IMG/VR virus record: IMGVR_UViG_3300042922_000108
Coordinates: 1-56,135 of that record
Source: a virus
Lineage: Duplodnaviria; Caudoviricetes
Length of the DNA stretch: 56,135 bases
Strand: one strand, 5' to 3'
Numbering within the stretch: position 1 is the first letter of the stretch; each line of letters starts with the position of its first letter. The position numbers and the translations under genes were made by a program. The notes under the pieces are model-generated. The model saw nothing but the letters and a program-made list of their open reading frames with translations. It was not told the DNA's origin and did no database searches. Shown piece by piece: positions 4,113 through 52,122 of the stretch.

Positions 4113-5522
4113 TTGGAGCAGCCGTATACACCTCACACAGACCAGAGAACTGCAATTGACTTCATCCTCAAGCACAAGGCCGTCCTTATCAAAGGTGGTG
4201 TGGGCTCAGGTAAGACGTTGGTAGGGGTACAAGCAGCTCTGGAAGCCGGTGTGGAAACCTTGCTGGTGATCGGACCCCTCAATACGTGGAAGGGATGGAG
4301 AACCACCACGGAGAGGCAGTCAGAGGGTGCACGAGAGCTTCGCTGGATCAACTCACGCAAGGCAGGGCAGGAAGCCTTACAGGACCTCATGACAGGAGTA
4401 CCCGGCTGGTACTTTATCGGACGTGAGCTGTTCCGCAACTACTCGTGGCGCAAGGTCACGCTGGACATGGTTATCTGGGATGAGATTCACGGAATCTCCA
4501 ACCGCAAGTCCAAGTCCTTCAAGATCACCAAGACTGCCAAGGCTACGTACAAGCTGGGGCTGTCTGCCACACCGGCAGGTAACCACCTCTCAGGCATGTG
4601 GTCAGTCAGTACATGGCTGTGGCCTACCAAGACTCTCAGAAGCTACTGGTCGTGGATTACCCAGTACTTCATGACTGAGCCTGACCCTTACTCTGACTTC
4701 AACCCCAAGGTGACGATAGAGCGAGAACCCGGCAAGATGTGGGCAGAGCTACCTGCTGCCTACAAGATGAAGTCTGTCTATACAGCAGAACCGGTCATCC
4801 ACGAGATTGAAGTTGATATATCACCTGTCCAGCGGAAGCATTACCGCGAGCTGGAAGAGGAAGCCTTGACGTGGCTCAAGGGGCACCCGCTGGCGATTGA
4901 CGTACCCGCCGTCCTTCACACACGACTTAGGCAAGTGTGCTTAGCTGTACCCTCAGTCAAGCAGGACTGGATCAAGCGTAAGGACAAGGAAACGGGACTA
5001 TGGGAAGACGTTTGGGGCGACGTTGTTTGGTTTGACGAAGATGCCAAGTCAACCAAGATCGACGCCCTGCTTGAAATCCTTGGTGACCTGTACGTTGAGA
5101 AGCCTGTCCCTGTTCTCGTGTTCACAGACTCTCGCAAGTTCGCAACCATCACTACCAAACGTTTGCAGGCCAAGGGTTACCGCGCTCGCCAGTTCATCGG
5201 TGGTATGTCGGACGCAGAACGATTCTGGAAGCTGGACAACTTTGGTAAAGAGTACGATGTGCTAGTTGCTGTTATTTCAGCCATCGGTACCGGCACTGAT
5301 GGATTGCAGGACGTATGCAATACAGAAGTGTGGATGAACTTTGGTTGGAATGGTATTGAAAATGAGCAGGGATTTGGTAGGCTGTCACGGCAGGGACAAA
5401 CCAAGACGGTACAGCGGTTTATCATCCAAGCACGTGACACGGTGGAGACTCGCCAACGTGAGAAGCTAAGGTCAGACCAAGAGCTTTTGAGTATCGGTTA
5501 CAGAGATAAGGAAACAGTCTAG
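4113..5522 (+). CDS. SF2 (SNF2-like) DNA helicase
   Basis: GSGKT Walker A, DEIH, SATP, Q-x-x-GRLSRQGQ motif VI. Confidence 0.9.
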   Translation: MEQPYTPHTDQRTAIDFILKHKAVLIKGGVGSGKTLVGVQAALEAGVETLLVIGPLNTWKGWRTTTERQSEGARELRWINSRKAGQEALQDLMTGVPGWYFIGRELFRNYSWRKVTLDMVIWDEIHGISNRKSKSFKITKTAKATYKLGLSATPAGNHLSGMWSVSTWLWPTKTLRSYWSWITQYFMTEPDPYSDFNPKVTIEREPGKMWAELPAAYKMKSVYTAEPVIHEIEVDISPVQRKHYRELEEEALTWLKGHPLAIDVPAVLHTRLRQVCLAVPSVKQDWIKRKDKETGLWEDVWGDVVWFDEDAKSTKIDALLEILGDLYVEKPVPVLVFTDSRKFATITTKRLQAKGYRARQFIGGMSDAERFWKLDNFGKEYDVLVAVISAIGTGTDGLQDVCNTEVWMNFGWNGIENEQGFGRLSRQGQTKTVQRFIIQARDTVETRQREKLRSDQELLSIGYRDKETV

Positions 5523-7990: not shown

Positions 7991-9274
7991 ATGGCAACTG
8001 CAACCACCACCCGCAAGGCATCCACCACCGCTGGTAAGACCGCTGGCAAGACTACTCCATCCACCAAGCTCAGCGGACAGACACCGGCTCACGTGGCCGC
8101 TGTGAAGCCAGCACCGGCACCGCAGAACCCCGAAGTCAAAGAGTCCAAGATGGAGATTGAAAGCACCGTAGTTCCGGGCAAGGTTGCTTTCGCGGTGATG
8201 ACTCCAGACCGGCTCAAAGCTCTGGCATTCATCAGCACATACAGCTCCACGGATGAGCAGTCCACCAGCCCTCGCGGACACGGTTACCAGAGGGAGCCGA
8301 TGGAAGAGCGCTTCCCCGGTATCGGTCGCTACTACGCTCGCGGTGACAACCGCTTCCGTATCCCCACGCTGACTATCAGCGTCAGGGTCTACGACGCAAA
8401 GGGCAGGGCTCGCTTCAACACCCTGTTCAATCAGGGGAACATCAGCAAGATTCATCAGGAGTTCGGGCGTTCCGTCTTCTCCATCGTGGATGGACAGCAC
8501 CGCTCCGGTGGCCTATTCTGGGCTTGGAAGAGCATCGAAGACTTCAACGCCTACGTTCCCATGATGCTGAACTACGGCCTGACGTACCGGGAAGAGGCAC
8601 AACTGTTCGATGACATGAACACCACGCAGCGCAAGCTCCCGAAGGCTCTCATTGAGGCCACGAAGGTGCACACGGAAGCTGACAACGCTTCCCACGCCCA
8701 AACCATTCGAGCGGTGACGTTCGAGCTGGCAGAAGACGGTGATTCGGTCTGGAACGGCAAGGTCAACATGACCGGCAAGCCTCGAGCTGCTGAACCTGTC
8801 AGCTTTGAAGGCCTGCGCCGGTCAGTCGGTGACCTGCTTCCCGCCAAGGTCATTGGCAGGCTCGAGGATCGCGGCTACATTCCCAGCAACGTCGCCAAGC
8901 GCTTCTGGGGCATGGTAGCCAAGGCATGTGCTCCAGCGTGGACAGACCAGCCCCGGTGGGTAGAGAATGAAAACCGGGAGCAGGTGGAAGAGCCTGTCAA
9001 GTACCGGCTGAAGGACGTGGTTGGTGTCGCCGCCGTCTCGCTGCTGGGAGCCGATATCCTCCTGACAGCGCTGGACAAGAGCACCAAGGATGAAGATTTC
9101 TGGGACATTGTTTCCGAGTACGTCAGCAAGCTTGGAGCTATCGACTGGGAGAAGCGGAAAAACAATCCGTGGATGAGTACTTCAGCCGGATTCGGTGGAC
9201 AGCGCCAGTTGTACGACATGCTATATTCACTGGTGTACACGGACACTCAGCCGGGAGTACCGGCAGAGTCCTAA
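7991..9274 (+). CDS. DGQHR-domain (DndB/ParB-Srx fold) protein
   Basis: YQR and IVDGQHR motifs, EEAQLFDDMNTTQRKL; own promoter (TTGACC-18-TAGATT) and terminator. Confidence 0.85.
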   Translation: MATATTTRKASTTAGKTAGKTTPSTKLSGQTPAHVAAVKPAPAPQNPEVKESKMEIESTVVPGKVAFAVMTPDRLKALAFISTYSSTDEQSTSPRGHGYQREPMEERFPGIGRYYARGDNRFRIPTLTISVRVYDAKGRARFNTLFNQGNISKIHQEFGRSVFSIVDGQHRSGGLFWAWKSIEDFNAYVPMMLNYGLTYREEAQLFDDMNTTQRKLPKALIEATKVHTEADNASHAQTIRAVTFELAEDGDSVWNGKVNMTGKPRAAEPVSFEGLRRSVGDLLPAKVIGRLEDRGYIPSNVAKRFWGMVAKACAPAWTDQPRWVENENREQVEEPVKYRLKDVVGVAAVSLLGADILLTALDKSTKDEDFWDIVSEYVSKLGAIDWEKRKNNPWMSTSAGFGGQRQLYDMLYSLVYTDTQPGVPAES

Positions 9275-9737: not shown

Positions 9738-10061
9738 TTGAAGCTCAACAAGTACGCAGCCAACGAAATCACCGGAGAGCTGCCCAAGGGTGTGACAGCT
9801 ACCGCAACGCTCATCATCAAGCTCAAGGCCAAGTGCACAGCGTGTGGAGAGACACACGAGCATGAGGAAGAGACTGACGGTAGGTACAACGCTGACTACG
9901 CTATCCAACACAAGATGCGCTTCACCACAGTGAAGACCAATCGGGACACTCGTACCTACTACGGTATGGAATTCCTGTTGTGCCCTAGTTGCAACAAAAC
10001 CGCGCAAGACTTCATGACTGGCAAGATCAATCTGAAAGAGGAAACCATTGAAGCTGACTGA
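9738..10061 (+). CDS. Hypothetical Zn-finger protein
   Basis: CTAC and CPSC pairs. Confidence 0.7.
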   Translation: MKLNKYAANEITGELPKGVTATATLIIKLKAKCTACGETHEHEEETDGRYNADYAIQHKMRFTTVKTNRDTRTYYGMEFLLCPSCNKTAQDFMTGKINLKEETIEAD

Positions 10062-11145
10062 ACTCTTCACGCTGGGACAGCTCGAGCTTGAGCTACAGGA
10101 CGGCTACGTGAAGGAAACGAAGCATCCTACGCTTCCCCTCACCATTCTGAACTACACCGACAAGTGCACCTATGAGCAGCTCTGGAATGATGTGACAACG
10201 CATTGCCGGGGGCTCATTGTCAACAACGTGACGCACGAGGTCATTGCTCGCGGACCTCGCAAGTTCTTCAACTACGGTGAGCCATCAGCAGCAACATGGC
10301 CGCTATCTCAGATGGTAGAACTCAGTACCAAGGAAGACGGCTCGCTGGGAATTGGTTGGCGGTTCTTTGACGGTGCACAGTGGCATTACGGGGTAGCCAC
10401 ACGCGGTAGCTTCACGTCAGAGCAGGCACTACACGCTACTGAGCTTCTGACGGATGACGATAAAGGTTCCATTGATTGGGGTACAGACTTCCACACCCGT
10501 ATCTGGGAGATTGTCTACCCTGAAAACCGTATTGTGTTGGACTACGGCGGACGGGATGAGCTTATCCCTCTTGGTACTGTGAACCATTACACAGGGCTTA
10601 TCCAGTGGAGGCCCCGTAAGGTTGCGCACTCTGACGTACTGGGAGCTATCACCTTGGGCGAAGCGCTCGCGTTGAAGATTCCAGACAACGAAGAGGGCTA
10701 TGTGCTCGATATCCTCAACACACAAGGTGTAGTGGTTGACCACCTGAAGCTCAAGGGTGAACGGTACAAAGAGCTTCACGCAGCAATCTTTGGTCTGTCT
10801 GAGAAGGCTATCTGGGAGCAGATGGTAGAAGGCACACACTTTGACTTCATTGCTGCCCTGCCGGATGAGGTACAGCCGTGGGCTCATGAAGTCGCTGACA
10901 GTCTCAGTGATGCCTTTGAGGGGTACTACTACAAAATCAACTATGTCTACTCGAGCGTGGTGACTTTCGAGCACCGTAGGGGGCAGGCTGAATACCTCAA
11001 GGCACACCACCCTGAAATTATGTCTCCTGTCTTCAACCTGCTTGACGGTAAGGTAGACCGTATGGAAGAGTGGGTCTGGAAGAAGATCAAGCCGGGACAC
11101 GTACCGTTTTCCGCAAGCAACGCATTGGAGAGTGCATCAGTTTGA
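10048..11145 (+). CDS. RNA ligase (T4 Rnl1-like)
   Basis: CRGLI, KFFN, KEDGSLG adenylylation motif, ATRGSF, EGYV, KLKG. Confidence 0.9.
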   Translation: MKLTELFTLGQLELELQDGYVKETKHPTLPLTILNYTDKCTYEQLWNDVTTHCRGLIVNNVTHEVIARGPRKFFNYGEPSAATWPLSQMVELSTKEDGSLGIGWRFFDGAQWHYGVATRGSFTSEQALHATELLTDDDKGSIDWGTDFHTRIWEIVYPENRIVLDYGGRDELIPLGTVNHYTGLIQWRPRKVAHSDVLGAITLGEALALKIPDNEEGYVLDILNTQGVVVDHLKLKGERYKELHAAIFGLSEKAIWEQMVEGTHFDFIAALPDEVQPWAHEVADSLSDAFEGYYYKINYVYSSVVTFEHRRGQAEYLKAHHPEIMSPVFNLLDGKVDRMEEWVWKKIKPGHVPFSASNALESASV

Positions 11146-11166
11146 GTCAGTTGATTATGGTCACAC

Positions 11167-11586
11167 GTGCGTACAAGGGCTAGAGCTGATCCTGAGACAC
11201 GCTTCTTTGCTCAGGTAGACATAACTGGATTCTGCTGGCTCTGGAATCGTGCACTAACCCGCAAGGGTTATGCAATGTTCAAGTTTGATCCACAGCAGAA
11301 TAAGGCACAAGCACATCGTTGGATTTACGAGCACTTGGTAGGTCCAATACCAGACGGTTTGGTATTGGATCACCTTTGCCGCATTAGGCACTGTGTGAAT
11401 CCTGACCATGTTGAACCTGTCACCAACGTTGAGAACGTGCGACGTGGGAATGGTGATTACAACAAAAACAAGTTACACTGCAAGCGGGGACACAGTTACA
11501 CAGGAGATAACGTGTACGTCCACAACAACCGAAGACATTGCAGGGCTTGCAGAGCACTGACACACATGCAAAGGAAACAGAAGTGA
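11167..11586 (+). CDS. HNH homing endonuclease
   Basis: DHLCRIRHCVNPDH; C-terminal HCKRGH...CRAC; paralogue of 132..656. Confidence 0.9.
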   Translation: MRTRARADPETRFFAQVDITGFCWLWNRALTRKGYAMFKFDPQQNKAQAHRWIYEHLVGPIPDGLVLDHLCRIRHCVNPDHVEPVTNVENVRRGNGDYNKNKLHCKRGHSYTGDNVYVHNNRRHCRACRALTHMQRKQK

Positions 11587-12533
11587 CGACTCCATTTATC
11601 ATTTTGACTAGAGGGTTGCCGGGTAGCGGTAAGAGCACATGGGCTGACAACACCATTTCCATTCTGCGGAACACCGTCAAGGTGGAGCGTGACGAAATGC
11701 GCCAGCTCCACTTCAAGCAGTACGGCAAGCTGTCCACGGAGCAGGAAGAGCAGGTGACCCGTACTCAGGAAGCCTTGGTTCGCGCCTACATTGGTCAGGG
11801 CGTGAACGTCATCATCAGTGACACTCACCTTCCTGACCGCTCTGTGAAGCGCTGGCAGAAGATCGGCCTCGAGCTTGGTTCTGAGGTTCTGGTACAGGAG
11901 TTCCGCAACGTACCTCTTGAGACGGTGCTGAAGAACAATGCGGAGCGCAATAAGTACCAGAAGGTTGTACCTGAGTCTGTCATCCGTGACATGCACAACC
12001 GCTTCATCAAGGGCCGTGACCTTGACAAGGAAGTGACGTACACACCTCCTGCTGAGCTGGAGATTGAGCCCTACGTACAACCTGACTTTGAGACAGGTTA
12101 TGAGGCTGTCATCTTTGACATTGACGGTACTCTTGCTGTCTTGGGTGACCGCTCACCTTACGATCCCACCAAGTACCACCTTGACAGTCTCAATGTGGAC
12201 GTGAACGCTTCCCTCGAAGCACATTGGAAGCTTGGACGGGAAATCATCATCGTTTCAGGACGTGATGAGGCATACCGCTCTGAGACAATCGCATGGCTCA
12301 ATGAGAACGAAGTGAAGTGGGACTTCCTTCACATGCGTCCTACGGAGAACCGTAAGGACGGGAAGAAAACCGAAGACAGCATCATCAAGTACAACCTCTT
12401 CAACGAGTACATCAGGGGTAAGAACTACAAAATCCTTGGTGTGTACGATGACAGGCAGCGTGTCTTGCGTATGTGGCGCAAGCTGGGGCTCACCACATTC
12501 CACGTCAACGGTCCTGACGCGGGAAACTTCTAG
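11583..12533 (+). CDS. pseT: Polynucleotide 5'-kinase/3'-phosphatase (T4 PseT/Pnkp-like)
   Basis: GLPGSGKS P-loop plus HAD DIDGT, SGR, DDR motifs; GTGA overlap start. Confidence 0.9.
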   Translation: MTTPFIILTRGLPGSGKSTWADNTISILRNTVKVERDEMRQLHFKQYGKLSTEQEEQVTRTQEALVRAYIGQGVNVIISDTHLPDRSVKRWQKIGLELGSEVLVQEFRNVPLETVLKNNAERNKYQKVVPESVIRDMHNRFIKGRDLDKEVTYTPPAELEIEPYVQPDFETGYEAVIFDIDGTLAVLGDRSPYDPTKYHLDSLNVDVNASLEAHWKLGREIIIVSGRDEAYRSETIAWLNENEVKWDFLHMRPTENRKDGKKTEDSIIKYNLFNEYIRGKNYKILGVYDDRQRVLRMWRKLGLTTFHVNGPDAGNF

Positions 12534-13536: not shown

Positions 13537-13907
13537 ACACCACTGAACAGAAGTACCTTCTCCTGCTGAAGACCTTGTATGACCCCAAGTCCACCAAGGC
13601 TGAGCTGTCAGCAGTAGGCAAAGCCATTGCGGAACTCACCGAGACTCAGCAGGTGGACTTCAACAACTTCCAGCACAAGGTGGGAGAGGTCTTCCTGCAG
13701 ATTCAGGCAGACCTTGACAAAGGCCTTGATGAACTGGCTGATGACTTCCCAGAAGAGACAGACCCACGCAAGTGGGAAGACGAAGACTGGGTAACCTTTG
13801 ACCTAGCAGTGTTTGAGCATAAGTACGAAGAGCTGTACCGTACCTACGCCGAACAGAAGCCCAACCTGCACCTCATGTGGAAAGAGATCGAAACCCGCCT
13901 TGCCTGA
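13533..13907 (+). CDS. Hypothetical protein
   Basis: 124-aa ORF coupled in operon. Confidence 0.7.
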   Translation: MNTTEQKYLLLLKTLYDPKSTKAELSAVGKAIAELTETQQVDFNNFQHKVGEVFLQIQADLDKGLDELADDFPEETDPRKWEDEDWVTFDLAVFEHKYEELYRTYAEQKPNLHLMWKEIETRLA

Positions 13908-15878: not shown

Positions 15879-15942
15879 CTTCATTATCAAGTAACACTGC
15901 ACTAAAAAATAACTCGAAAAACAACAAAAGGAAACACACATA

Positions 15943-16476
15943 GTGACTGAGCGTCCTTCATTTGACCTGACCGCCGAAGACCTTGACACCACCCGCAAGT
16001 TGGTGCCGGAAGGCTGGCACACGGTTGAAATTGATGACTGCGAAGACGATCTGGAGACTTCCAACGGGAACCTTCAGTACCTCGTGAAGTACAAGTCCGT
16101 GGATGAGAGCTTCAAGGGACAGCTTTGGGACTACATTGCAGTCACGAAGTCTTCCATTCAGAACATCATCAGCCTGACCAAGGCTGCAGGCCTGCCGGTT
16201 CCCACCAAGGAAAAGCCGGGTCCGTTTACCCCTCCTGAAGCTGATGACCTGATCGGCAAGGAACTCCAGATTGAAGTTGTCCACGTGGATGACTACAAGA
16301 AGGCAACTGACGATGAGGGCAATATCCTCAAGCGTGCACAGGTCCGTTTCGCCGGTCGTAAGAAGATCGGTGAGAAGGTAGGCAAGACTGCTGCCAAGGC
16401 AACCACCAAGGCTGGCGCTAAGGCTCCGGCTAAGGGCAAGGCCGCTGCTGCTGAGACTGACGGTTTCTCGCTGTAG
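15943..16476 (+). CDS. Single-stranded DNA-binding protein (DUF669-like)
   Basis: PEGWH.V.I, LIGKE..I.V, Lys/Ala-rich tail ending ETDGFSL; synteny. Confidence 0.7.
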   Translation: MTERPSFDLTAEDLDTTRKLVPEGWHTVEIDDCEDDLETSNGNLQYLVKYKSVDESFKGQLWDYIAVTKSSIQNIISLTKAAGLPVPTKEKPGPFTPPEADDLIGKELQIEVVHVDDYKKATDDEGNILKRAQVRFAGRKKIGEKVGKTAAKATTKAGAKAPAKGKAAAAETDGFSL

Positions 16477-16545
16477 CTGACGTGGTGGGGTAACGATGGC
16501 ACTACCCGTTACTTAAACGTTCAAGATAATGCGCCCACCACCCTA

Positions 16546-16573
16546 ACTCCTGAGCATGAGTGATAAACTGCTC
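16546..16573 (+). ncRNA. Compact H-type pseudoknot
   Basis: ACTC/GAGT stem; loop GAGCA pairs with downstream TGCTC. Confidence 0.5.
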
Positions 16574-16576
16574 CAA

Positions 16577-16718
16577 CGGCTGATAGTTCAATCTGGTGTA
16601 GGCGAACATATTGTTCTGTGACGGGCGTGAACACTCGAGGAACGTCACAGCAAATTACTGGGAGCTTCAGAACACTACCTTTGGTGGTAGAGATATGGGT
16701 TCAAATCCCACAAGCCGA
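16577..16718 (+). ncRNA. tRNA-Pro(UGG)-like RNA interrupted by a 71-nt D-loop insertion
   Basis: CGGCTGA-TA-GTTCAATCTGGT ... AGAAC-A-CTACC-TTTGGT-GGTAG-AGAT-ATGGG-TTCAAAT-CCCAC-AAGCCG-A. Confidence 0.6.
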
Positions 16719-16787
16719 CAAGAGCAGCATAGCGTTAGTAGCGGAAGTGAAAGCCAGATGGCTCTTGCCGGAGGGCGATAACCTCAA

Positions 16788-16820
16788 GAGGAAGCCAGTC
16801 GAAAGGCTGGCTTTCCTTTT
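16788..16820 (+). terminator. Intrinsic terminator closing the RNA cluster
   Basis: GGAAGCCAGTC-GAAA-GGCTGGCTTTC then CTTTT. Confidence 0.75.
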
Positions 16821-16882
16821 GCCCTAGCGGGATGGAATATGAAACATCTGCTAAGCTATGAGTTTGGATTGAAAGGAGCACA

Positions 16883-19105
16883 ATGACCGAGTACCGCACA
16901 TTCCTTGAAAGTGTCTGGGGAGAACTGCAGGGACAGGTCTGCATTTCGCGCATGAACAATGACCAACTGAAGAACCACAAGTTCTTCTCTTGGCCGGAGC
17001 AGGCAGACGCGATCTGGGACTACGTTGACAAGTACAAGCACGAAGACGTGTACTTCCCTCCTGTACTCTTCAAGGCCAACAAGAGACAGCGTGTGCTCGC
17101 CAGTCAGTGCCAAGTTGTGTACGGTGACGCGGATACCTTCAACCTTGATGACGTGCGCTGTGAGCCGTCCATCATCGTCAGGACTTCCCCCAACAAGACT
17201 CACCTGTACTGGATGATTGAGGGCATGGATAATGCCCAGCTTGCCGAAACGCTCTCGCACTCTGTCTCAGTAGCACACCCCAAGGCGTCCACAGGCTTTG
17301 ATGACGGATGGAGCTGCACCAAGCTTCTGCGTGTTCCCGGCACCACGAACACCAAGTACGTAGGCGAGACGGGTGAGGTCTACACCGTTGAGGTGGAGTA
17401 CACCGGAGTGACCTACACACAGGAAGAGTTTGAAGGGTACTACCCTCCTGTTCCTGAGTACACCATCGACTTCAAGCCCTTCCCCGAAGAGGCTTTCCCG
17501 TCCTACGCTGAGGTTCTGGGCTCCCTGCCTGCAAGCACACGGCTGGAAGGCCTGCTACAGACGGCAGCGTTCCCGAAGAAGTCTGCTGGCTCAGAAGCCT
17601 TGTACGCGCTCTACGTTGAGCTGATGAACCTTGGCGCGACAGATGAGCAGGTCTACGTCATTGCAGAGCGCTCACCGCTGAACAAGTGGAAGCGTGACGG
17701 ACACAGGGATGCTGGAGAGCGTCTGTGGGCAGACATTCAGCGCGCTCGCGTGAAGGATGGCTCACCGATTGATGGTGACGAAGAAGAGGATGATGAAGAC
17801 ACCATCATCACCGTTGCTCCCAAGCCGAAGACCAAGGGCTTTGACTTCCTGAATGAGGGGGAGAAGGAATCCCTGCAGCGCACCTTCATTGATGACTACC
17901 TGACGTGGACTAAGAGCAAGACTGACGCACCGGAGGCCTACCACATTGCTGGCGCGTTCACTGTGCTTTCCACGGTGTTCTCCGATTTCGGTCACGCTGT
18001 GCCTCACTGGGGAGACGTGCCGCTGAACCTGTGGTTCATGGTGCTGGGCTCCACCACGCTTTCTCGTAAGTCCACCGCCAAGGGTTACATGCTGAAGTGC
18101 ATCGAAGCCCTCGAGGGTGAGAACTTCAACTATGACTTGGGCTCCAAGTTCACGGCTGAAGGTCTGGATGAGGCTCTGCGTTCCAATGCCAACCGTTCCG
18201 CTCTGCTCCACATTGATGAGATTCAGGGCTTGATGAAGCAGCTTGACAGCAAGGCCTACCTTGCTGGCATCAAGGGCGAACTCACGGAAATCTACGATGG
18301 CAAGGTCACAGGCAAGCTGCGTGCTTCCGGTGAAGAGAAGGATAAGAAGCGCAAGGGTGCTCGCGTGGCGCTCAACCTGTTCGCAATGGGTATCCGTGAC
18401 CAGCTCGCGGACTACCTGACCGAAGATGACTTCCAGTCAGGCTTCCTGACGCGATTCATCTACGTGTCCGCCAAGCCGCTGCAGCGCACCGCTGAGACTG
18501 ACTACATCGGTCAGCAGGATAAGACAGAGCGCACCAAGGGCGATCCTGCCTTCCTGAACCTCATTGAGAAGCTGAAGGAAGCGCGTGACGTTTGGTCAGG
18601 GTGGAACGATCCTACAGAGCGCACCATTGCAGTGCCAATGAATGTGGAAGCACACGAGCGCTTCAACGCTTTCGTCACGGCTGCTATCGACGCTGCACAG
18701 GCTCAGTCCAAGGCCACGATCCTTGAGGCTGCTACCAACCGTCTGTCTACGTCCATCCTGAAGGCCGCTACGCTGCTGGCAATGGCTGACATGTGTGATG
18801 AGGTTGAGCTTCACCACATGCTGGCTGCTATCAACTACTGCGGTCAGTGGTTTGAGCACCTTGTGGAAATGACCAAGCGGATTTCTGAGAGCAACTGGAA
18901 GCGCCGTCAAGACAAGCTGATGGAAGCCGTGTTTGCCAAGGGTGGTGAAATCTCGTGGGCATCTGCCTACCGCCACTTCAACGCTGAGCTGAAGGCGCGT
19001 GAGTTCACGGAGCTGGTGCAGTCTCTCGAAGAGGCAGGCCTGCTCATCATGTCCAAGAATAAGAAGACCAAGACGCTGGTAGCCGTAATGGAAGGAACTG
19101 TCTAA
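16883..19105 (+). CDS. DNA primase/polymerase (RepB-like) fused to P-loop helicase
   Basis: DAD, TSP..H.YW, LLRVPGT.N.KY; C-terminal RKST, DE, GFLTRF. Confidence 0.85.
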   Translation: MTEYRTFLESVWGELQGQVCISRMNNDQLKNHKFFSWPEQADAIWDYVDKYKHEDVYFPPVLFKANKRQRVLASQCQVVYGDADTFNLDDVRCEPSIIVRTSPNKTHLYWMIEGMDNAQLAETLSHSVSVAHPKASTGFDDGWSCTKLLRVPGTTNTKYVGETGEVYTVEVEYTGVTYTQEEFEGYYPPVPEYTIDFKPFPEEAFPSYAEVLGSLPASTRLEGLLQTAAFPKKSAGSEALYALYVELMNLGATDEQVYVIAERSPLNKWKRDGHRDAGERLWADIQRARVKDGSPIDGDEEEDDEDTIITVAPKPKTKGFDFLNEGEKESLQRTFIDDYLTWTKSKTDAPEAYHIAGAFTVLSTVFSDFGHAVPHWGDVPLNLWFMVLGSTTLSRKSTAKGYMLKCIEALEGENFNYDLGSKFTAEGLDEALRSNANRSALLHIDEIQGLMKQLDSKAYLAGIKGELTEIYDGKVTGKLRASGEEKDKKRKGARVALNLFAMGIRDQLADYLTEDDFQSGFLTRFIYVSAKPLQRTAETDYIGQQDKTERTKGDPAFLNLIEKLKEARDVWSGWNDPTERTIAVPMNVEAHERFNAFVTAAIDAAQAQSKATILEAATNRLSTSILKAATLLAMADMCDEVELHHMLAAINYCGQWFEHLVEMTKRISESNWKRRQDKLMEAVFAKGGEISWASAYRHFNAELKAREFTELVQSLEEAGLLIMSKNKKTKTLVAVMEGTV

Positions 19106-19787: not shown

Positions 19788-21933
19788 CTACATTTACAGC
19801 TCCACACCGATGGAGCAGGAGCACATGGCCCTCCTGAAAAAGGCTAAAGAGCAGTCAGGCATCACGGAGCCCATCGACTTCATGCCACTGCCTGATGAGC
19901 CATTCAAAAACGTCCCAGTGCTTGCGCTGGGGCGTTTGACTCGTGAGGTCCGGTGCCGTGTCATCAATGCACCGTCTCCCGGCTCGCTGATGACCAAGGC
20001 TGACTCCCTGACGCGCATGACAGACGCGCTCAAGCTGCTGGTGAACGGTCCACAGCTCCCTGAAATGAACTACGTGGTGGAAGAGCGCATTGACTGGCTC
20101 TGCGGCATCCTACGGAACACTCACGGCAAAAAGGTCGCGTTCGATATCGAAACGTCCGGTGATGTGAAGTGGGATATCCCTGCTTACGATCAAGTCATTT
20201 CGGTGGCTATCTGGGGCGGCACTGGTCCCGTCATGGTCATCCCCGAGCACATGCTCAGGAACGATCTGATTGAGCGCGCCCTCAACAAGTTCCTACGGCG
20301 CAACAAGATCATCACCGCCAACGGCAAGTTTGACCTGTCCTACTTTGAGCCTGACCTTGTGAACTGGTTCGATATCATGCTGGCTCACTACGCCCTGTTC
20401 CCGGCAGGGAGCACACACGGCCTGAAGGACTTGGCTGACCAGTATTTCGGCTCTGGTGACTGGGATGAAGCCAACAAGCAGTACACGGTAGCCAAGACGT
20501 ACAAGGAAGCCGGTTCCCGCGAAGACGGGGCTTGGTGGAGCGCTCGCAAGTACAGCGGCGGCTCTGGCTACGAACGTATCCCGCGCGCAATGCTGTACGA
20601 GTACAACGCCTTTGACGTGTTCTACACGTGGTTCCTGTACGAGCTGTTTGAGGATTACCTTGCGGAAGACCCAGAGTCCCGCATGGCCTTTGACTGGCTG
20701 CTGGAGCTGGACAATGACCTGTTCCGTGGTGTGGAGCGCCGTGGTATCCGGCTGAATGTCGAGTACCTGAAGCAGCTCGAGGAAGAGATGACTGCTGAGC
20801 TGTTTGAGGCTGAGCAGGAGTTGAACCGCATTGCTGGGCAGGTCATCAATCCGCGCTCTCCCATACAGGTGAAGGACTGGCTGCACAGCCGTAAGAAGCG
20901 TGTCAAGGGCACCGGCAAGGCTGTCATTGAGAAGCTGATGAAGAGTGACCGGACTTCTGATGAGGTCAAGGACTTCTGCAGAGCATTCACCAAGTGCCGG
21001 TTCATCAGCAAGCAGCTTGGCACTTACGTCACGGGCTTCCTGAAGCATTGCCACGGTGACATGGTGTACCCCGGCTACAAGCTGCACGCGGCCTCTACAG
21101 GCCGTCTGGGAGGCTCTGGAGCGTCCATGCTCACAATCCCCCGCGACAAGCGTTTGAAGGCTATGGTGCTGCCTTCCGTGGACGGTCACGTGGTAGTGAC
21201 AGCCGATATGTCTCAGGCTGAGCTACGTGTGATGGCTATGGAGTCCGGTGACCCTTGGTTGATTGCAGCCTTCCAGCCTGACGCTGGCGATATCTTTGAT
21301 ATCCTCCTGCAGTCTGCAATGCCTCAGTACGACTGGGCAGAGCTACACGCTCGAGCTGATGACGGTGACGATCCGGGGCAGTTCTACGGTACGTGGCGCG
21401 CTCGCATGAAGGGCGTTGTGTACGGTGTGTCCTTTGGCCGTGGTGTGGCTGCTATCGCTGCAGCGCTTGAGGTTGAGAAGCACATTGCTCAAACGCTGGT
21501 AGACGGTTTCGTGCGTCCGGGCAGCAAGTTTGCTCAGTGGCGGGAAGAGATAGAAACCAAGGCTCTGACTGGTCAGGCCATCGTGACCAAGTTTGGGCGG
21601 CACTTCCAGTCGGAAATCATCACCGAGTACAACGCTCACGAGGTGACGAACTCTGCGCTGAGCTTCACGTCGCAGTCCACAGCCAACGATATCTGTCTGA
21701 AGGCGGCTGTGTGGCTGAATCCCCAGCTCGAGCAGTACGGCGCGTGGCTCATGGGTACCATCCATGACGCTATCTACGTGACCTGCCCTGAAGAACACAA
21801 GGTGACCGTGGGCAAGCTCATTGCTGAGGCTCTGAAGAGGGCAGGACGGGATGCCTACGGCGATACGGTTCCGTTCGCTGCTGACGCTGGCTATGGACCC
21901 AACCTTGCGAAAATCGAGAAACTTGCCGCATGA
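19780..21933 (+). CDS. polA: DNA polymerase, family A, with 3'-5' exonuclease
   Basis: DIET, NGKFD, YNAFD exo motifs; TGRL, DMSQAELR, RxxxKxxxYG, HD. Confidence 0.95.
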   Translation: MRSYIYSSTPMEQEHMALLKKAKEQSGITEPIDFMPLPDEPFKNVPVLALGRLTREVRCRVINAPSPGSLMTKADSLTRMTDALKLLVNGPQLPEMNYVVEERIDWLCGILRNTHGKKVAFDIETSGDVKWDIPAYDQVISVAIWGGTGPVMVIPEHMLRNDLIERALNKFLRRNKIITANGKFDLSYFEPDLVNWFDIMLAHYALFPAGSTHGLKDLADQYFGSGDWDEANKQYTVAKTYKEAGSREDGAWWSARKYSGGSGYERIPRAMLYEYNAFDVFYTWFLYELFEDYLAEDPESRMAFDWLLELDNDLFRGVERRGIRLNVEYLKQLEEEMTAELFEAEQELNRIAGQVINPRSPIQVKDWLHSRKKRVKGTGKAVIEKLMKSDRTSDEVKDFCRAFTKCRFISKQLGTYVTGFLKHCHGDMVYPGYKLHAASTGRLGGSGASMLTIPRDKRLKAMVLPSVDGHVVVTADMSQAELRVMAMESGDPWLIAAFQPDAGDIFDILLQSAMPQYDWAELHARADDGDDPGQFYGTWRARMKGVVYGVSFGRGVAAIAAALEVEKHIAQTLVDGFVRPGSKFAQWREEIETKALTGQAIVTKFGRHFQSEIITEYNAHEVTNSALSFTSQSTANDICLKAAVWLNPQLEQYGAWLMGTIHDAIYVTCPEEHKVTVGKLIAEALKRAGRDAYGDTVPFAADAGYGPNLAKIEKLAA

Positions 21934-22397
21934 TCTGGATTCTTAGATTTTGGGCGAAGGTTGACTACTCAGGTGATTGCTGGTTGTGGCCTGATGCTCT
22001 TACGGAGGGTTACGGCATGTTCAGCCGTGACAACAAGCAACATCTTGCCCATCGTATAGCGTATGAGCAAACTTACGGTGAGATACCAAAGGGGTTGATG
22101 GTGGATCACATGTGTCACACAAGGCATTGTGTAAGGCCTGACCACCTACGCGCTGTAACCCATAAGCAAAATCAAGAGAATCGGAAAGGTAATCAGAAGA
22201 ACAACACTTCCGGTTATCGCGGTGTGTGGCTACACAAACCGTCTGGCCGGTGGATAGCACGTGTGAAACATCACGGTAAGGTGCACCACTTAGGACAGTT
22301 TGACGATGTACATGAAGCAGGTAAGGTTGCTGCAGAGGCTCGTGAAGCATTATTCACCTCAAATCCGTTGAAAGGTGTTGACAAGCTAGTTGCCTAG
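21930..22397 (+). CDS. HNH endonuclease with AP2 domain
   Basis: AHR..Y, DHMCHTRHCVRPDHL, NTSGYRGV...W.A....LG.F. Confidence 0.9.
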   Translation: MIWILRFWAKVDYSGDCWLWPDALTEGYGMFSRDNKQHLAHRIAYEQTYGEIPKGLMVDHMCHTRHCVRPDHLRAVTHKQNQENRKGNQKNNTSGYRGVWLHKPSGRWIARVKHHGKVHHLGQFDDVHEAGKVAAEAREALFTSNPLKGVDKLVA

Positions 22398-51935: not shown

Positions 51936-52049
51936 CTTGGTGTTCGCATGGAATTTATATCGACGGGCCATGCACCTCGCCATTGGTCAGCTAGCAGGTG
52001 GTTACTTAGCTACAGGATTTTCGGCCTATGATTCGTTCCACCCGCCGCG

Positions 52050-52122
<73 letters not shown>

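Follow-up and report, generated by a model that had tools for sequence, protein, structure and literature searches.

What is the RNA encoded at positions 16577-16718 of a soil phage, IMG/VR virus record IMGVR_UViG_3300042922_000108 (Duplodnaviria; Caudoviricetes), which is built like a proline transfer RNA (tRNA(Pro)) and carries a large extra arm? The window, by which we mean the whole 56,135-nucleotide (nt) stretch of this record, has a CheckV completeness of 94%, and the 142-nt tRNA-shaped RNA gene sits in a 406-nt gap with an SSB-like gene on one side and a primase/helicase gene on the other. The original prediction, made from the letters of the window, described a tRNA(Pro)-like RNA with a 71-nt D-loop insert, a C1-G72 pair and A73, and each feature that it listed is present where it was placed. 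The best explanation of the element is that it belongs to a small, previously undescribed phage RNA family derived from tRNA(Pro). We estimate a probability of about 75% that this RNA is a functional, non-decoding and unspliced tRNA mimic.

The RNA and all its parts lie on the plus strand, and its outline (a tRNA(Pro)-type shell whose D loop carries an extra arm and whose anticodon loop has 6 nt) is drawn from the sequence, from ARAGORN after insert removal, from four full-length homologues and from covariation. The acceptor 5' strand spans 16577-16583; its first five bases, 16577-16581, pair with 16713-16717 to give 5 base pairs (bp) that begin with C1-G72, after which G16582 faces A16712 and A16583 faces C16711. 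The discriminator is A16718, and the 3' flank reads CAA, so that CCA is not encoded. In the segment 16586-16597, the D-stem 5' strand GTTC (16586-16589) leads into AATCTGGT (16590-16597), the first part of the D loop, which includes the normal D-loop GG. On the far side of the insert, 16669-16674 comprises A21, the D-stem 3' strand GAAC (16670-16673) and A26, all invariant in the five members of the family. The anticodon arm (16675-16690) consists of the stem CTACC (16675-16679) / GGTAG (16686-16690) and the 6-nt loop TTTGGT (16680-16685). The last segment, 16691-16718, contains the variable loop AGATA, a 4-bp T stem (TGGG 16696-16699 / CCCA 16707-16710) around the T loop TTCAAAT (16700-16706), the acceptor 3' strand (16711-16717) and the discriminator.

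Set beside a tRNA, this RNA has the covarying cloverleaf stems, the T loop and the D-loop GG, and departs from it in the acceptor/T branch and the anticodon loop. The branch has 11 layers (five Watson-Crick pairs, the G.A and A.C oppositions and the 4-bp T stem) rather than the 12 layers (7 + 5 bp) of a tRNA, and these 11 layers are identical in all five members. In place of a 7-nt anticodon loop with U33 and a three-base anticodon, there are six nucleotides in each of the five. The short loop, the acceptor stem of about 5 bp and the missing CCA had all been noted before and can be read directly from the letters; the view built on them, that normal decoding is unlikely, is supported.

The 71-nt extra arm (16598-16668) branches off between D-loop positions 20 and 21. 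It rises from a basal helix, in which 16598 and 16600-16603 pair with 16664-16668, through an internal loop, ACATAT ... TTACTGG, to an apical hairpin (16616-16650) formed by CTGTGACG (16616-16623) and CGTCACAG (16643-16650). These strands make 8 bp around a 19-nt loop, and the palindrome CTCGAG (16634-16639) lies inside that loop.

Standard finders overlook the RNA, as had been anticipated. Run on the whole window, ARAGORN called a tRNA-Asn at 52049-52122 and nothing at 16577-16718, and Rfam at gathering scores found that tRNA-Asn alone; within 16400-16900, Rfam gave no tRNA match at E ≤ 10. On 16540-16760, ARAGORN found nothing at default or with introns allowed, and no transfer-messenger RNA (tmRNA) with the -m option at a relaxed threshold; a much lowered threshold produced a different, implausible model. 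An Rfam match to mir-1000 (24 bits, E 0.0049) was set aside as a chance hairpin match. Removal of 16598-16668 by script restores a normal 9-nt D loop, and the default ARAGORN call is then a 73-nt tRNA-?(Gln|Pro) whose anticodon has two letters, the sign of a 6-nt loop. The homologues behave alike: unmodified, none of the four is called, and once the inserts are cut by script ARAGORN at default calls four of the five members, all with a two-letter anticodon, L169 being the one not called.

These homologues came from pattern scans of viral contigs, with patterns taken from conserved blocks, and lie in L146 (13881-14021), L159 (372-505, minus strand), L168 (2659-2793, minus strand) and L169 (7670-7803). 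In all four the shell is kept, the insert measures 63-70 nt and enters the D loop where it does in the window, and the anticodon arm is 16 nt long, six of them in the loop. Invariant across the five members are the pairs C1-G72, G2-C71 and G3-C70, the G opposite A at 6:67, the A opposite C at 7:66, U8 and A9, the D stem, the D-loop TGGT, the insert core ACATAT ... TTACTGG, A21, A26, the variable loop AGATA, a 4-bp T stem, A73 followed by C, and the six-base anticodon loop; the T loop reads TTCRAAT in all five. The members differ in the anticodon stem, in the apical hairpin of the insert and in the sequence of the anticodon loop, which is TTTGGT in the window, L146 and L159, CATGGG in L168 and CAGCGG in L169, with an NGG triplet in every one. 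The original prediction had suggested checking whether relatives keep the tRNA shell and vary the insert; the shell and the core and position of the insert are kept, and the apical hairpin varies.

Other searches drew blanks. Neither 16300-17000 nor 16666-16720 matched any cultured phage by BLAST, and an exact-pattern scan of viral contigs for the anticodon and T arms of the window itself gave no hit. The pattern CCTTTGGTGG..GGTTC recovered, beyond L146 and L159, three chance matches in coding DNA; an anticodon-arm pattern matched 26 times in 185,579 species genomes, never followed by a T loop, and we take these matches as chance. A pattern for the hairpin stem hit 15 loci in viral contigs, with L146 as the sole homologue among them.

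Each of the five copies runs in the same direction as the genes that flank it. The window and L146 copies have SSB on one side and primase on the other; the L159 copy follows the gene for a DNA polymerase exonuclease subunit; and the L168 and L169 copies are flanked by a phrog_908 gene and terminase genes, with a normal tRNA-Cys 100 nt upstream of the RNA in L169. The phrog_908 product was considered as a partner and rejected, being absent from the record of the window and from three of the four other records searched. Between the window and L146, 118 of 142 nt of the RNA are identical, whereas the adjacent primase proteins share 52% (96/183), so the RNA is better kept than the neighbouring primase.

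The pattern of substitutions tells most about the fold. Against L146, 24 of 142 columns differ, 23 by substitution and one by a 1-nt gap. Sixteen of the 23 substitutions fall into eight compensatory pairs, and no pair is broken. In the acceptor stem, 4:69 changes from C-G to G-C and 5:68 from U-A to A-U in L146; an A-U becomes G-C in the anticodon stem, a U-A becomes C-G and a G-C becomes A-U in the T stem, and three pairs change in the basal helix of the insert. The other substitutions comprise four adjacent changes that turn the apical palindrome CTCGAG into CCTAGG, with self-complementarity kept, and three in internal loops. When 23 substitutions were placed at random, every pair was left intact in 1 of 200,000 trials.

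Pair counts over growing sets of members agree. With two sequences, all 33 pairs are paired (100%) and 8 changed on both sides, against 0 in each of six slid controls; with three sequences, 25 pairs are 100% paired, again with 8 changed on both sides. With five, 24 pairs are paired in 97.5% of 120 cells and 11 have changed on both sides, a count that no shuffle out of 500 reached; slid controls gave 0-2. By stem, the five members show both-side changes in two acceptor pairs, four of five anticodon pairs, two of four T pairs and three pairs of the basal helix. The acceptor, anticodon and T pairs had been set on the window sequence alone, ahead of the first homologue, and the unalignable apical hairpins of L159, L168 and L169 were left out of the counts. 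A G.U pair at column 25:91 is kept on the plus strand in all five members, which, together with the co-orientation of the copies with genes, favours an RNA over a DNA hairpin.

The insert shares in this conservation. Its length runs 71, 70, 65, 64 and 63 nt across the five members, and L146 has exactly the 8-bp apical stem of the window. The earlier description of the insert as a folded domain is supported, and the conserved core and covarying basal helix suit a domain that is kept. At the apex, the palindromes differ in every member (CTCGAG, CCTAGG, CTGTGCGCACAG, GTGCAC and CCGCTGCAGCGG), each at least 6 nt long. Shuffled loops give a palindrome of at least 6 nt in 15-34% of cases, and the product of the five frequencies is 3.6e-4, a figure that is overstated since the loops are related. 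The self-complementary apex suggests that two molecules could pair loop to loop. Taken over the five phage lineages, the comparison shows, at the level of sequence, that the cloverleaf, the 6-nt loop, the 11-layer branch and the 63-71-nt arm are held by selection.

Several points weigh against reading this conservation as a functional tRNA mimic. There are five sequences only, three of them with a nearly identical acceptor stem; two sequences were already known when the insert's basal helix was drawn; and the D stem and the 8-bp apical stem are invariant where alignable, so that neither offers evidence from covariation. One anticodon-stem pair in L169 is A.A, and the anticodon-loop sequence is not kept in L168 and L169, which weakens models of specific anticodon mimicry. 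No protein neighbour common to the five copies was found, and the RNA behaves like a gene complete in itself. No RNA run was found to contain 16000-17400, and that the RNA is transcribed, processed, given CCA, charged and stable is what we infer. Folding energies are unremarkable, with z = -1.9, -2.1, -0.38, -0.32 and -0.39 for the five members; for 16577-16720 the minimum free energy is -42.9 kcal/mol, a value reached by 9 of 200 shuffles. With support from energy this weak, the comparative evidence, four homologues with compensatory changes, is decisive. In the window, the minimum-free-energy fold from RNAfold replaces the D stem by a helix AGUUC:GAGCU, which we rejected since two of its five pairs are broken in L146, where the D stem and basal helix are kept; the corresponding fold of L159 alone forms the D stem and the same architecture.

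How might such an RNA work? It would be transcribed with the flanking genes, whose orientation it shares in all five members, and host RNase P and 3' processing would release it, with CCA added as on a tRNA. A stable L-shaped RNA would then accumulate, kept from decoding by the size of its anticodon loop and the bulk at its elbow. As a free tRNA mimic it could occupy a host factor that recognises tRNA(Pro), given that C1-G72, A73 and NGG are kept in all five; charging by prolyl-tRNA synthetase (ProRS) is possible. Alternatively, the tRNA body may be the stable carrier of the extra arm, whose self-complementary apex could join two molecules. Between a decoy or sponge in a conflict over tRNA and a carrier of the arm we divide the functional-mimic reading roughly in half, and we put forward a decoy or adaptor role as a proposal. 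Of the three readings offered in the original prediction, a 'tRNA scaffold displaying a cargo hairpin' fits best, with shell and insert core conserved and covarying in all five members.

Known tRNA-like RNAs provide partial parallels. Canonical tRNA(Pro) (RF00005) shares the stem order, the T loop TTCAAAT, the D-loop GG, C1-G72 with A73, and UGG, present in four of the five loops; in contrast, the phage RNA has a 6-nt loop, a 7/4 branch with G.A and A.C, a 63-71-nt D-loop arm and no Rfam match at E ≤ 10. The T4 stable RNAs 'species 1 and 2' (rnaC, rnaD) come from a tRNA cluster, are larger than tRNA, have tRNA-like ends and are matured by tRNA enzymes, and their function is unknown. The window RNA resembles them in being phage-encoded, with tRNA-like ends and above tRNA size, and we know of no 6-nt anticodon loop or D-loop arm in either species.

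The Y-RNA-like YrlA also joins a tRNA mimic to a second structured module, occurs in bacteria and some phages, and lies near RNA-repair genes. In YrlA a long helix replaces the anticodon arm, and the RNA binds Rsr; the window RNA, unlike it, keeps the anticodon arm and sends its extra arm out of the D loop. Apart from the chance match to mir-1000, Rfam at E ≤ 10 on 16400-16900 matched no non-tRNA family, Y-RNA-like families included. In eukaryotes, mascRNA is a non-decoding tRNA-like element that lies 3' of a protective triple helix in MALAT1 and is cut by RNase P. The window likewise has a tRNA-like element just 3' of a compact structure, here a pseudoknot described below; three of the five phage members, however, lack the pseudoknot, and the phage RNA itself is strongly conserved. 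tmRNA is set apart by its G3.U70, since 3:70 is G-C in all five members and an anticodon arm is present.

Extra sequence inside a tRNA body is found too in archaeal tRNAs with D-arm introns and in engineered 'tRNA scaffolds', and the scaffold idea matches the carrier reading. The archaeal introns are removed at a bulge-helix-bulge by an enzyme that bacteria lack; the engineered scaffolds are artificial and replace the anticodon arm. Across these comparisons, the RNA has the defining features of none of the T4 stable RNAs, YrlA, mascRNA and tmRNA, and it falls short of a tRNA on three tests.

The 8/4 and 9/3 tRNAs of soil bacteria and phages resemble the family in their odd acceptor/T geometry, 4-bp T stem and source, as described in PMC5389517. 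According to that paper, their branch keeps 12 layers, their anticodon loops are normal and decoding was demonstrated, in contrast to the 7/4 layers, 6-nt loop and D-loop arm of the window family; in our RNA the 3' strand has only seven nucleotides from the T stem to position 73, too few for either type. A literature search found no description of the RNA family or of the leader pseudoknot, and neither did look-ups in PMC5737381 and PMC5389517; subscription journals and supplements lay outside its scope, so that absence is unproven.

The pseudoknot just mentioned is an upstream leader, outside the RNA family proper, at 16546-16573 on the plus strand. Its stem S1 pairs ACTC (16546-16549) with GAGT (16558-16561), and the hairpin loop so formed, C-U-GAGCA-U, can pair with the tail UGCUC beyond an A-rich linker (16562-16568), which gives an H-type pseudoknot with S2 between GAGCA (16552-16556) and TGCTC (16569-16573). 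The motif is single in the window. In viral contigs, the pattern CCTGAGYA-N7-10-AAACTGCTC occurs in at least 120 contigs and at least 147 copies, with up to four per contig. The general form (loci L020-L139 and L140-L142) has a variable stem that covaries, a loop C-U-GAGYA-W, a linker ending ..AAAC and the tail UGCUC. S2 covaries as well: when loop and tail were left free and all five S2 pairs were demanded, 180 sites emerged and a reversed-tail control gave 8, with S2 variants such as GGGTA/TACCC, GGACA/TGTCC and AGACA/TGTCT; without the S2 requirement, 17 of 29 non-consensus sites had five of five S2 pairs, against 5.15 expected from permuted tails.

The leader is found in the cultured phages Paracoccus phage ParMal1 (Autographiviridae), cyanophage S-RIM4 (Kyanoviridae) and Mycobacterium phage Labelle, which are phages of Proteobacteria, cyanobacteria and Actinobacteria, and the motif as a whole is present in phages of many host phyla. 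Among the matches listed, 119 copies have an upstream open reading frame on the same strand, and 74 of these lie 5-19 nt past its stop codon; a normal tRNA lies 4-33 nt downstream in 15 of 143 unique copies (10 Asp, 2 Arg, 2 Thr and 1 Ser). Type-III hammerheads (CTGANGA ... GAAAC) stand about 10 nt past the leader and before the next gene in L025 (near 13780-13830) and L028 (minus strand, motif 2606-2629). Two further elements follow a leader. In L043, at about 4667-4770, there is a 104-nt tRNA-like gene, not called by ARAGORN, whose 7-bp acceptor stem is perfect and whose anticodon region has about 41 extra bases; in L146, between the leader and the Pro-like RNA, a 57-nt element (L146:13820-13876) has an acceptor-like closure GGGGG.../...CCCCC-A and, where a T arm would be, a hairpin with a 3-nt loop.

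Rfam matched no family on 16 leader copies in five loci. We rejected a hammerhead core, in which position 8 would be G and here is Y; a sigma-54 or sigma-70 promoter, for which the spacing is unfit and a conserved -35 is absent, the motif occurring also in T7-like, T4-like, siphovirus and crAss-like phages; and a preQ1-I riboswitch, for which there was no Rfam match. The leader may protect the 3' ends of upstream messenger RNA (mRNA), have a role linked to termination, or serve as a recombination seam for cassettes.

What follows the leader changes quickly among close kin. Searches through the primase identified kin at 82-83% protein identity (L001-L005, L011 and L018), with L013 at 87% over the first 77 residues, L012 at 69% and a fragment match in L019. 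The gap between SSB and primase is hypervariable in these kin: L002, L003 and L018 lack a tRNA-like element, and the others each have a different one, none homologous to the window RNA over its length. L001 has one at 2756-2825 (43.7 bits as tRNA, with a 6-nt loop CGTGCC by our reading), L012 at 937-1022 (54.5 bits, a two-letter anticodon from ARAGORN) and L013 at 781-853 (30.6 bits, an over-long loop); further aberrant tRNA-likes lie at L004:2808-2904 and L011:~1288-1380. By eye, an element in L019 upstream of 2501 and a second one in L012 at about 1110-1175 have an acceptor stem, a D arm and a T arm, and lack a normal anticodon arm. Anticodon loops of 6 nt occur in L001 and L012, and none of the kin elements has a normal 7-nt loop.

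Soil-metagenome contigs aligned to 16000-17400 break or switch exactly at the end of the leader (16573/16574), which marks the leader as the edge of a swappable cassette; one of them joins 16573 to 16818, with no cassette at all. In a soil-metagenome variant (X3 record 9), the leader is followed by 72 other bases and then by a variant of 16576-16718 that keeps the insert and differs by 12 substitutions and three 1-nt indels (16614, 16633 and 16638), all outside the 8-bp stem.

This setting bears on the strongest alternative to a functional mimic acting in trans, a cis-acting 'tRNA punctuation' in which RNase P would cut the SSB-operon transcript just 3' of the pseudoknot, so that the 3' end of the upstream mRNA would be protected in the way that mascRNA serves MALAT1; the RNA would have no other job. 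The leader ends 3 nt before the RNA and elsewhere comes directly after stop codons; in other phages it precedes the ordinary tRNAs and the two clear hammerheads noted above; and close kin have other aberrant tRNA-likes at the same spot, two of them, by eye, without an anticodon arm. The leader is nevertheless absent from three of the five members (L159, L168 and L169), and a promoter-like TTGACA-17-TAGGTT stands, in our reading, upstream of the L168 copy. A cutting signal would have no need of the conserved arm, the fixed 6-nt loop or the insert core, and L002, L003 and L018, kin that lack both leader and tRNA-like element, indicate that the operon can do without them. We regard punctuation as improbable, with perhaps the best prospects among the rivals.

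A good deal less probable is that the insert is an intervening sequence whose halves are rejoined, for example by the phage enzymes Rnl1 and Pnkp, into a tRNA(Pro)-like RNA of 71-73 nt. The two enzymes that the original prediction invoked are indeed encoded in the window, as an Rnl1-like RNA ligase (10048-11145; phrog_562, 1e-57; PF09511) and a polynucleotide kinase (Pnkp; 11538-12533; phrog_505, 7e-83); they occur also in two kin of the window, removal of 16598-16668 leaves the normal 9-nt D loop, and some archaeal tRNA genes carry D-arm introns. Excision and religation are nevertheless not supported. The record of L159, 79% complete, lacks both ligase and kinase; neither an endonuclease nor a bulge-helix-bulge is evident, the junctions in our reading being an 8-nt loop on the 5' side and 1 nt on the 3' side rather than two 3-nt bulges; and the conserved core and covarying basal helix suit a kept domain. 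The product would still have the 6-nt anticodon loop and the 11-layer acceptor/T branch, and since that loop persists, splicing would not yield a decoding tRNA. As the original prediction stated, the insert is too short for a group I or II intron: 71 nt is far below the size of self-splicing introns, and Rfam ribozyme and intron families were unmatched at E ≤ 10.

Less likely again is a working tRNA(Pro) with unusual decoding, such as a six-membered loop that promotes frameshifting at CCN codons. C1-G72, A73 and the NGG loop triplet, which we take to be ProRS identity elements, are kept in all five members, and tRNAs with 8-nt loops are known as frameshift suppressors. Against it, the NGG register is shifted in L169, A replaces U33 in L168 and L169, the acceptor/T branch lacks one layer and contains two non-standard oppositions, and the 63-71-nt elbow arm would probably clash with the ribosome. 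The least likely account, a decaying tRNA pseudogene or a DNA-level hairpin (an origin, recombination or packaging signal) without RNA function, could appeal to the absence of any tRNA score from ARAGORN and Rfam, to a hypervariable spot whose kin have other defective tRNA-likes and to a position at the borders of replication and packaging modules, but its pseudogene form, for which the original prediction had named random decay without compensation as the sign, is largely refuted by the eight compensatory and zero broken pairs against L146, the 11 pairs changed on both sides among five sequences and the identical 'defects' in all five members, and a DNA hairpin is opposed by G.U pairs conserved on a single strand and by unrelated flanks, which argue against a tie to one replication or packaging system.

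The genes around the element complete the picture of the locus. The SSB-like gene (15943-16476; phrog_378) and the primase/helicase gene (16883-19105; phrog_10514, E 2e-191) bound the gap; an exonuclease and a Sak4-like annealing protein of the same replication module are encoded upstream of it and a family-A DNA polymerase downstream. A consensus promoter and terminator scan of 15900-17000 found nothing. By our own reading, which that scan did not flag, a terminator-like hairpin GCCAGTC-GAAA-GGCTGGC followed by TTTCCTTTT lies at 16794-16820 on the plus strand and is kept in relatives. Directly 3' of the RNA, a plus-strand hairpin at 16719-16767 has the base CAAGAGC (16719-16725) / GCTCTTG (16761-16767) and a variable top; it is common to the window, L001 and L012, with kept ends (CAAGAGCAGCAT ... 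GATGGCTCTTG) and differing interiors, and its GAGCAG (16722-16727) is able to pair with CTGCTC of the leader across the tRNA-like RNA in a 291-nt fold. Farther off, 10048-12533 holds the Rnl1-like ligase, an HNH endonuclease and Pnkp in a row, a T4-type tRNA repair set with a homing-endonuclease-like gene splitting ligase and kinase. Further HNH genes lie at 132-656 and 21930-22397, and 7991-9274 encodes a 427-residue protein with a DndB (DNA-sulfur-modification-associated) domain (PF14072, E 2e-11) and no PHROG match.

Returning to the functional, non-decoding mimic, a bolder version would make the family a new class of phage non-coding RNA, in which a proline-chargeable, decoding-disabled body with a dimerising elbow arm acts as a decoy or inhibitor against host immunity that targets tRNA, or against an enzyme that recognises tRNA(Pro), from a fast-swapping cassette site marked in the lineage of the window by a phage-wide pseudoknot. 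We hold this fuller picture tentatively and think it possible, with the odds against it. Phage tRNA genes are usually seen as helpers for codon usage or as replacements for tRNAs cut by defence systems. A tRNA body that is kept by selection, with its decoding parts disabled alike in five lineages and an elbow arm added, points to a job for the tRNA shape outside translation. Neither tRNAscan-type tools nor Rfam detect the family, so phage RNAs of this kind have probably been overlooked, and its size of about 145 nt suits direct tests of processing, charging, dimers and partners. The leader pseudoknot, if also undescribed, would be a second testable RNA element of wide reach.

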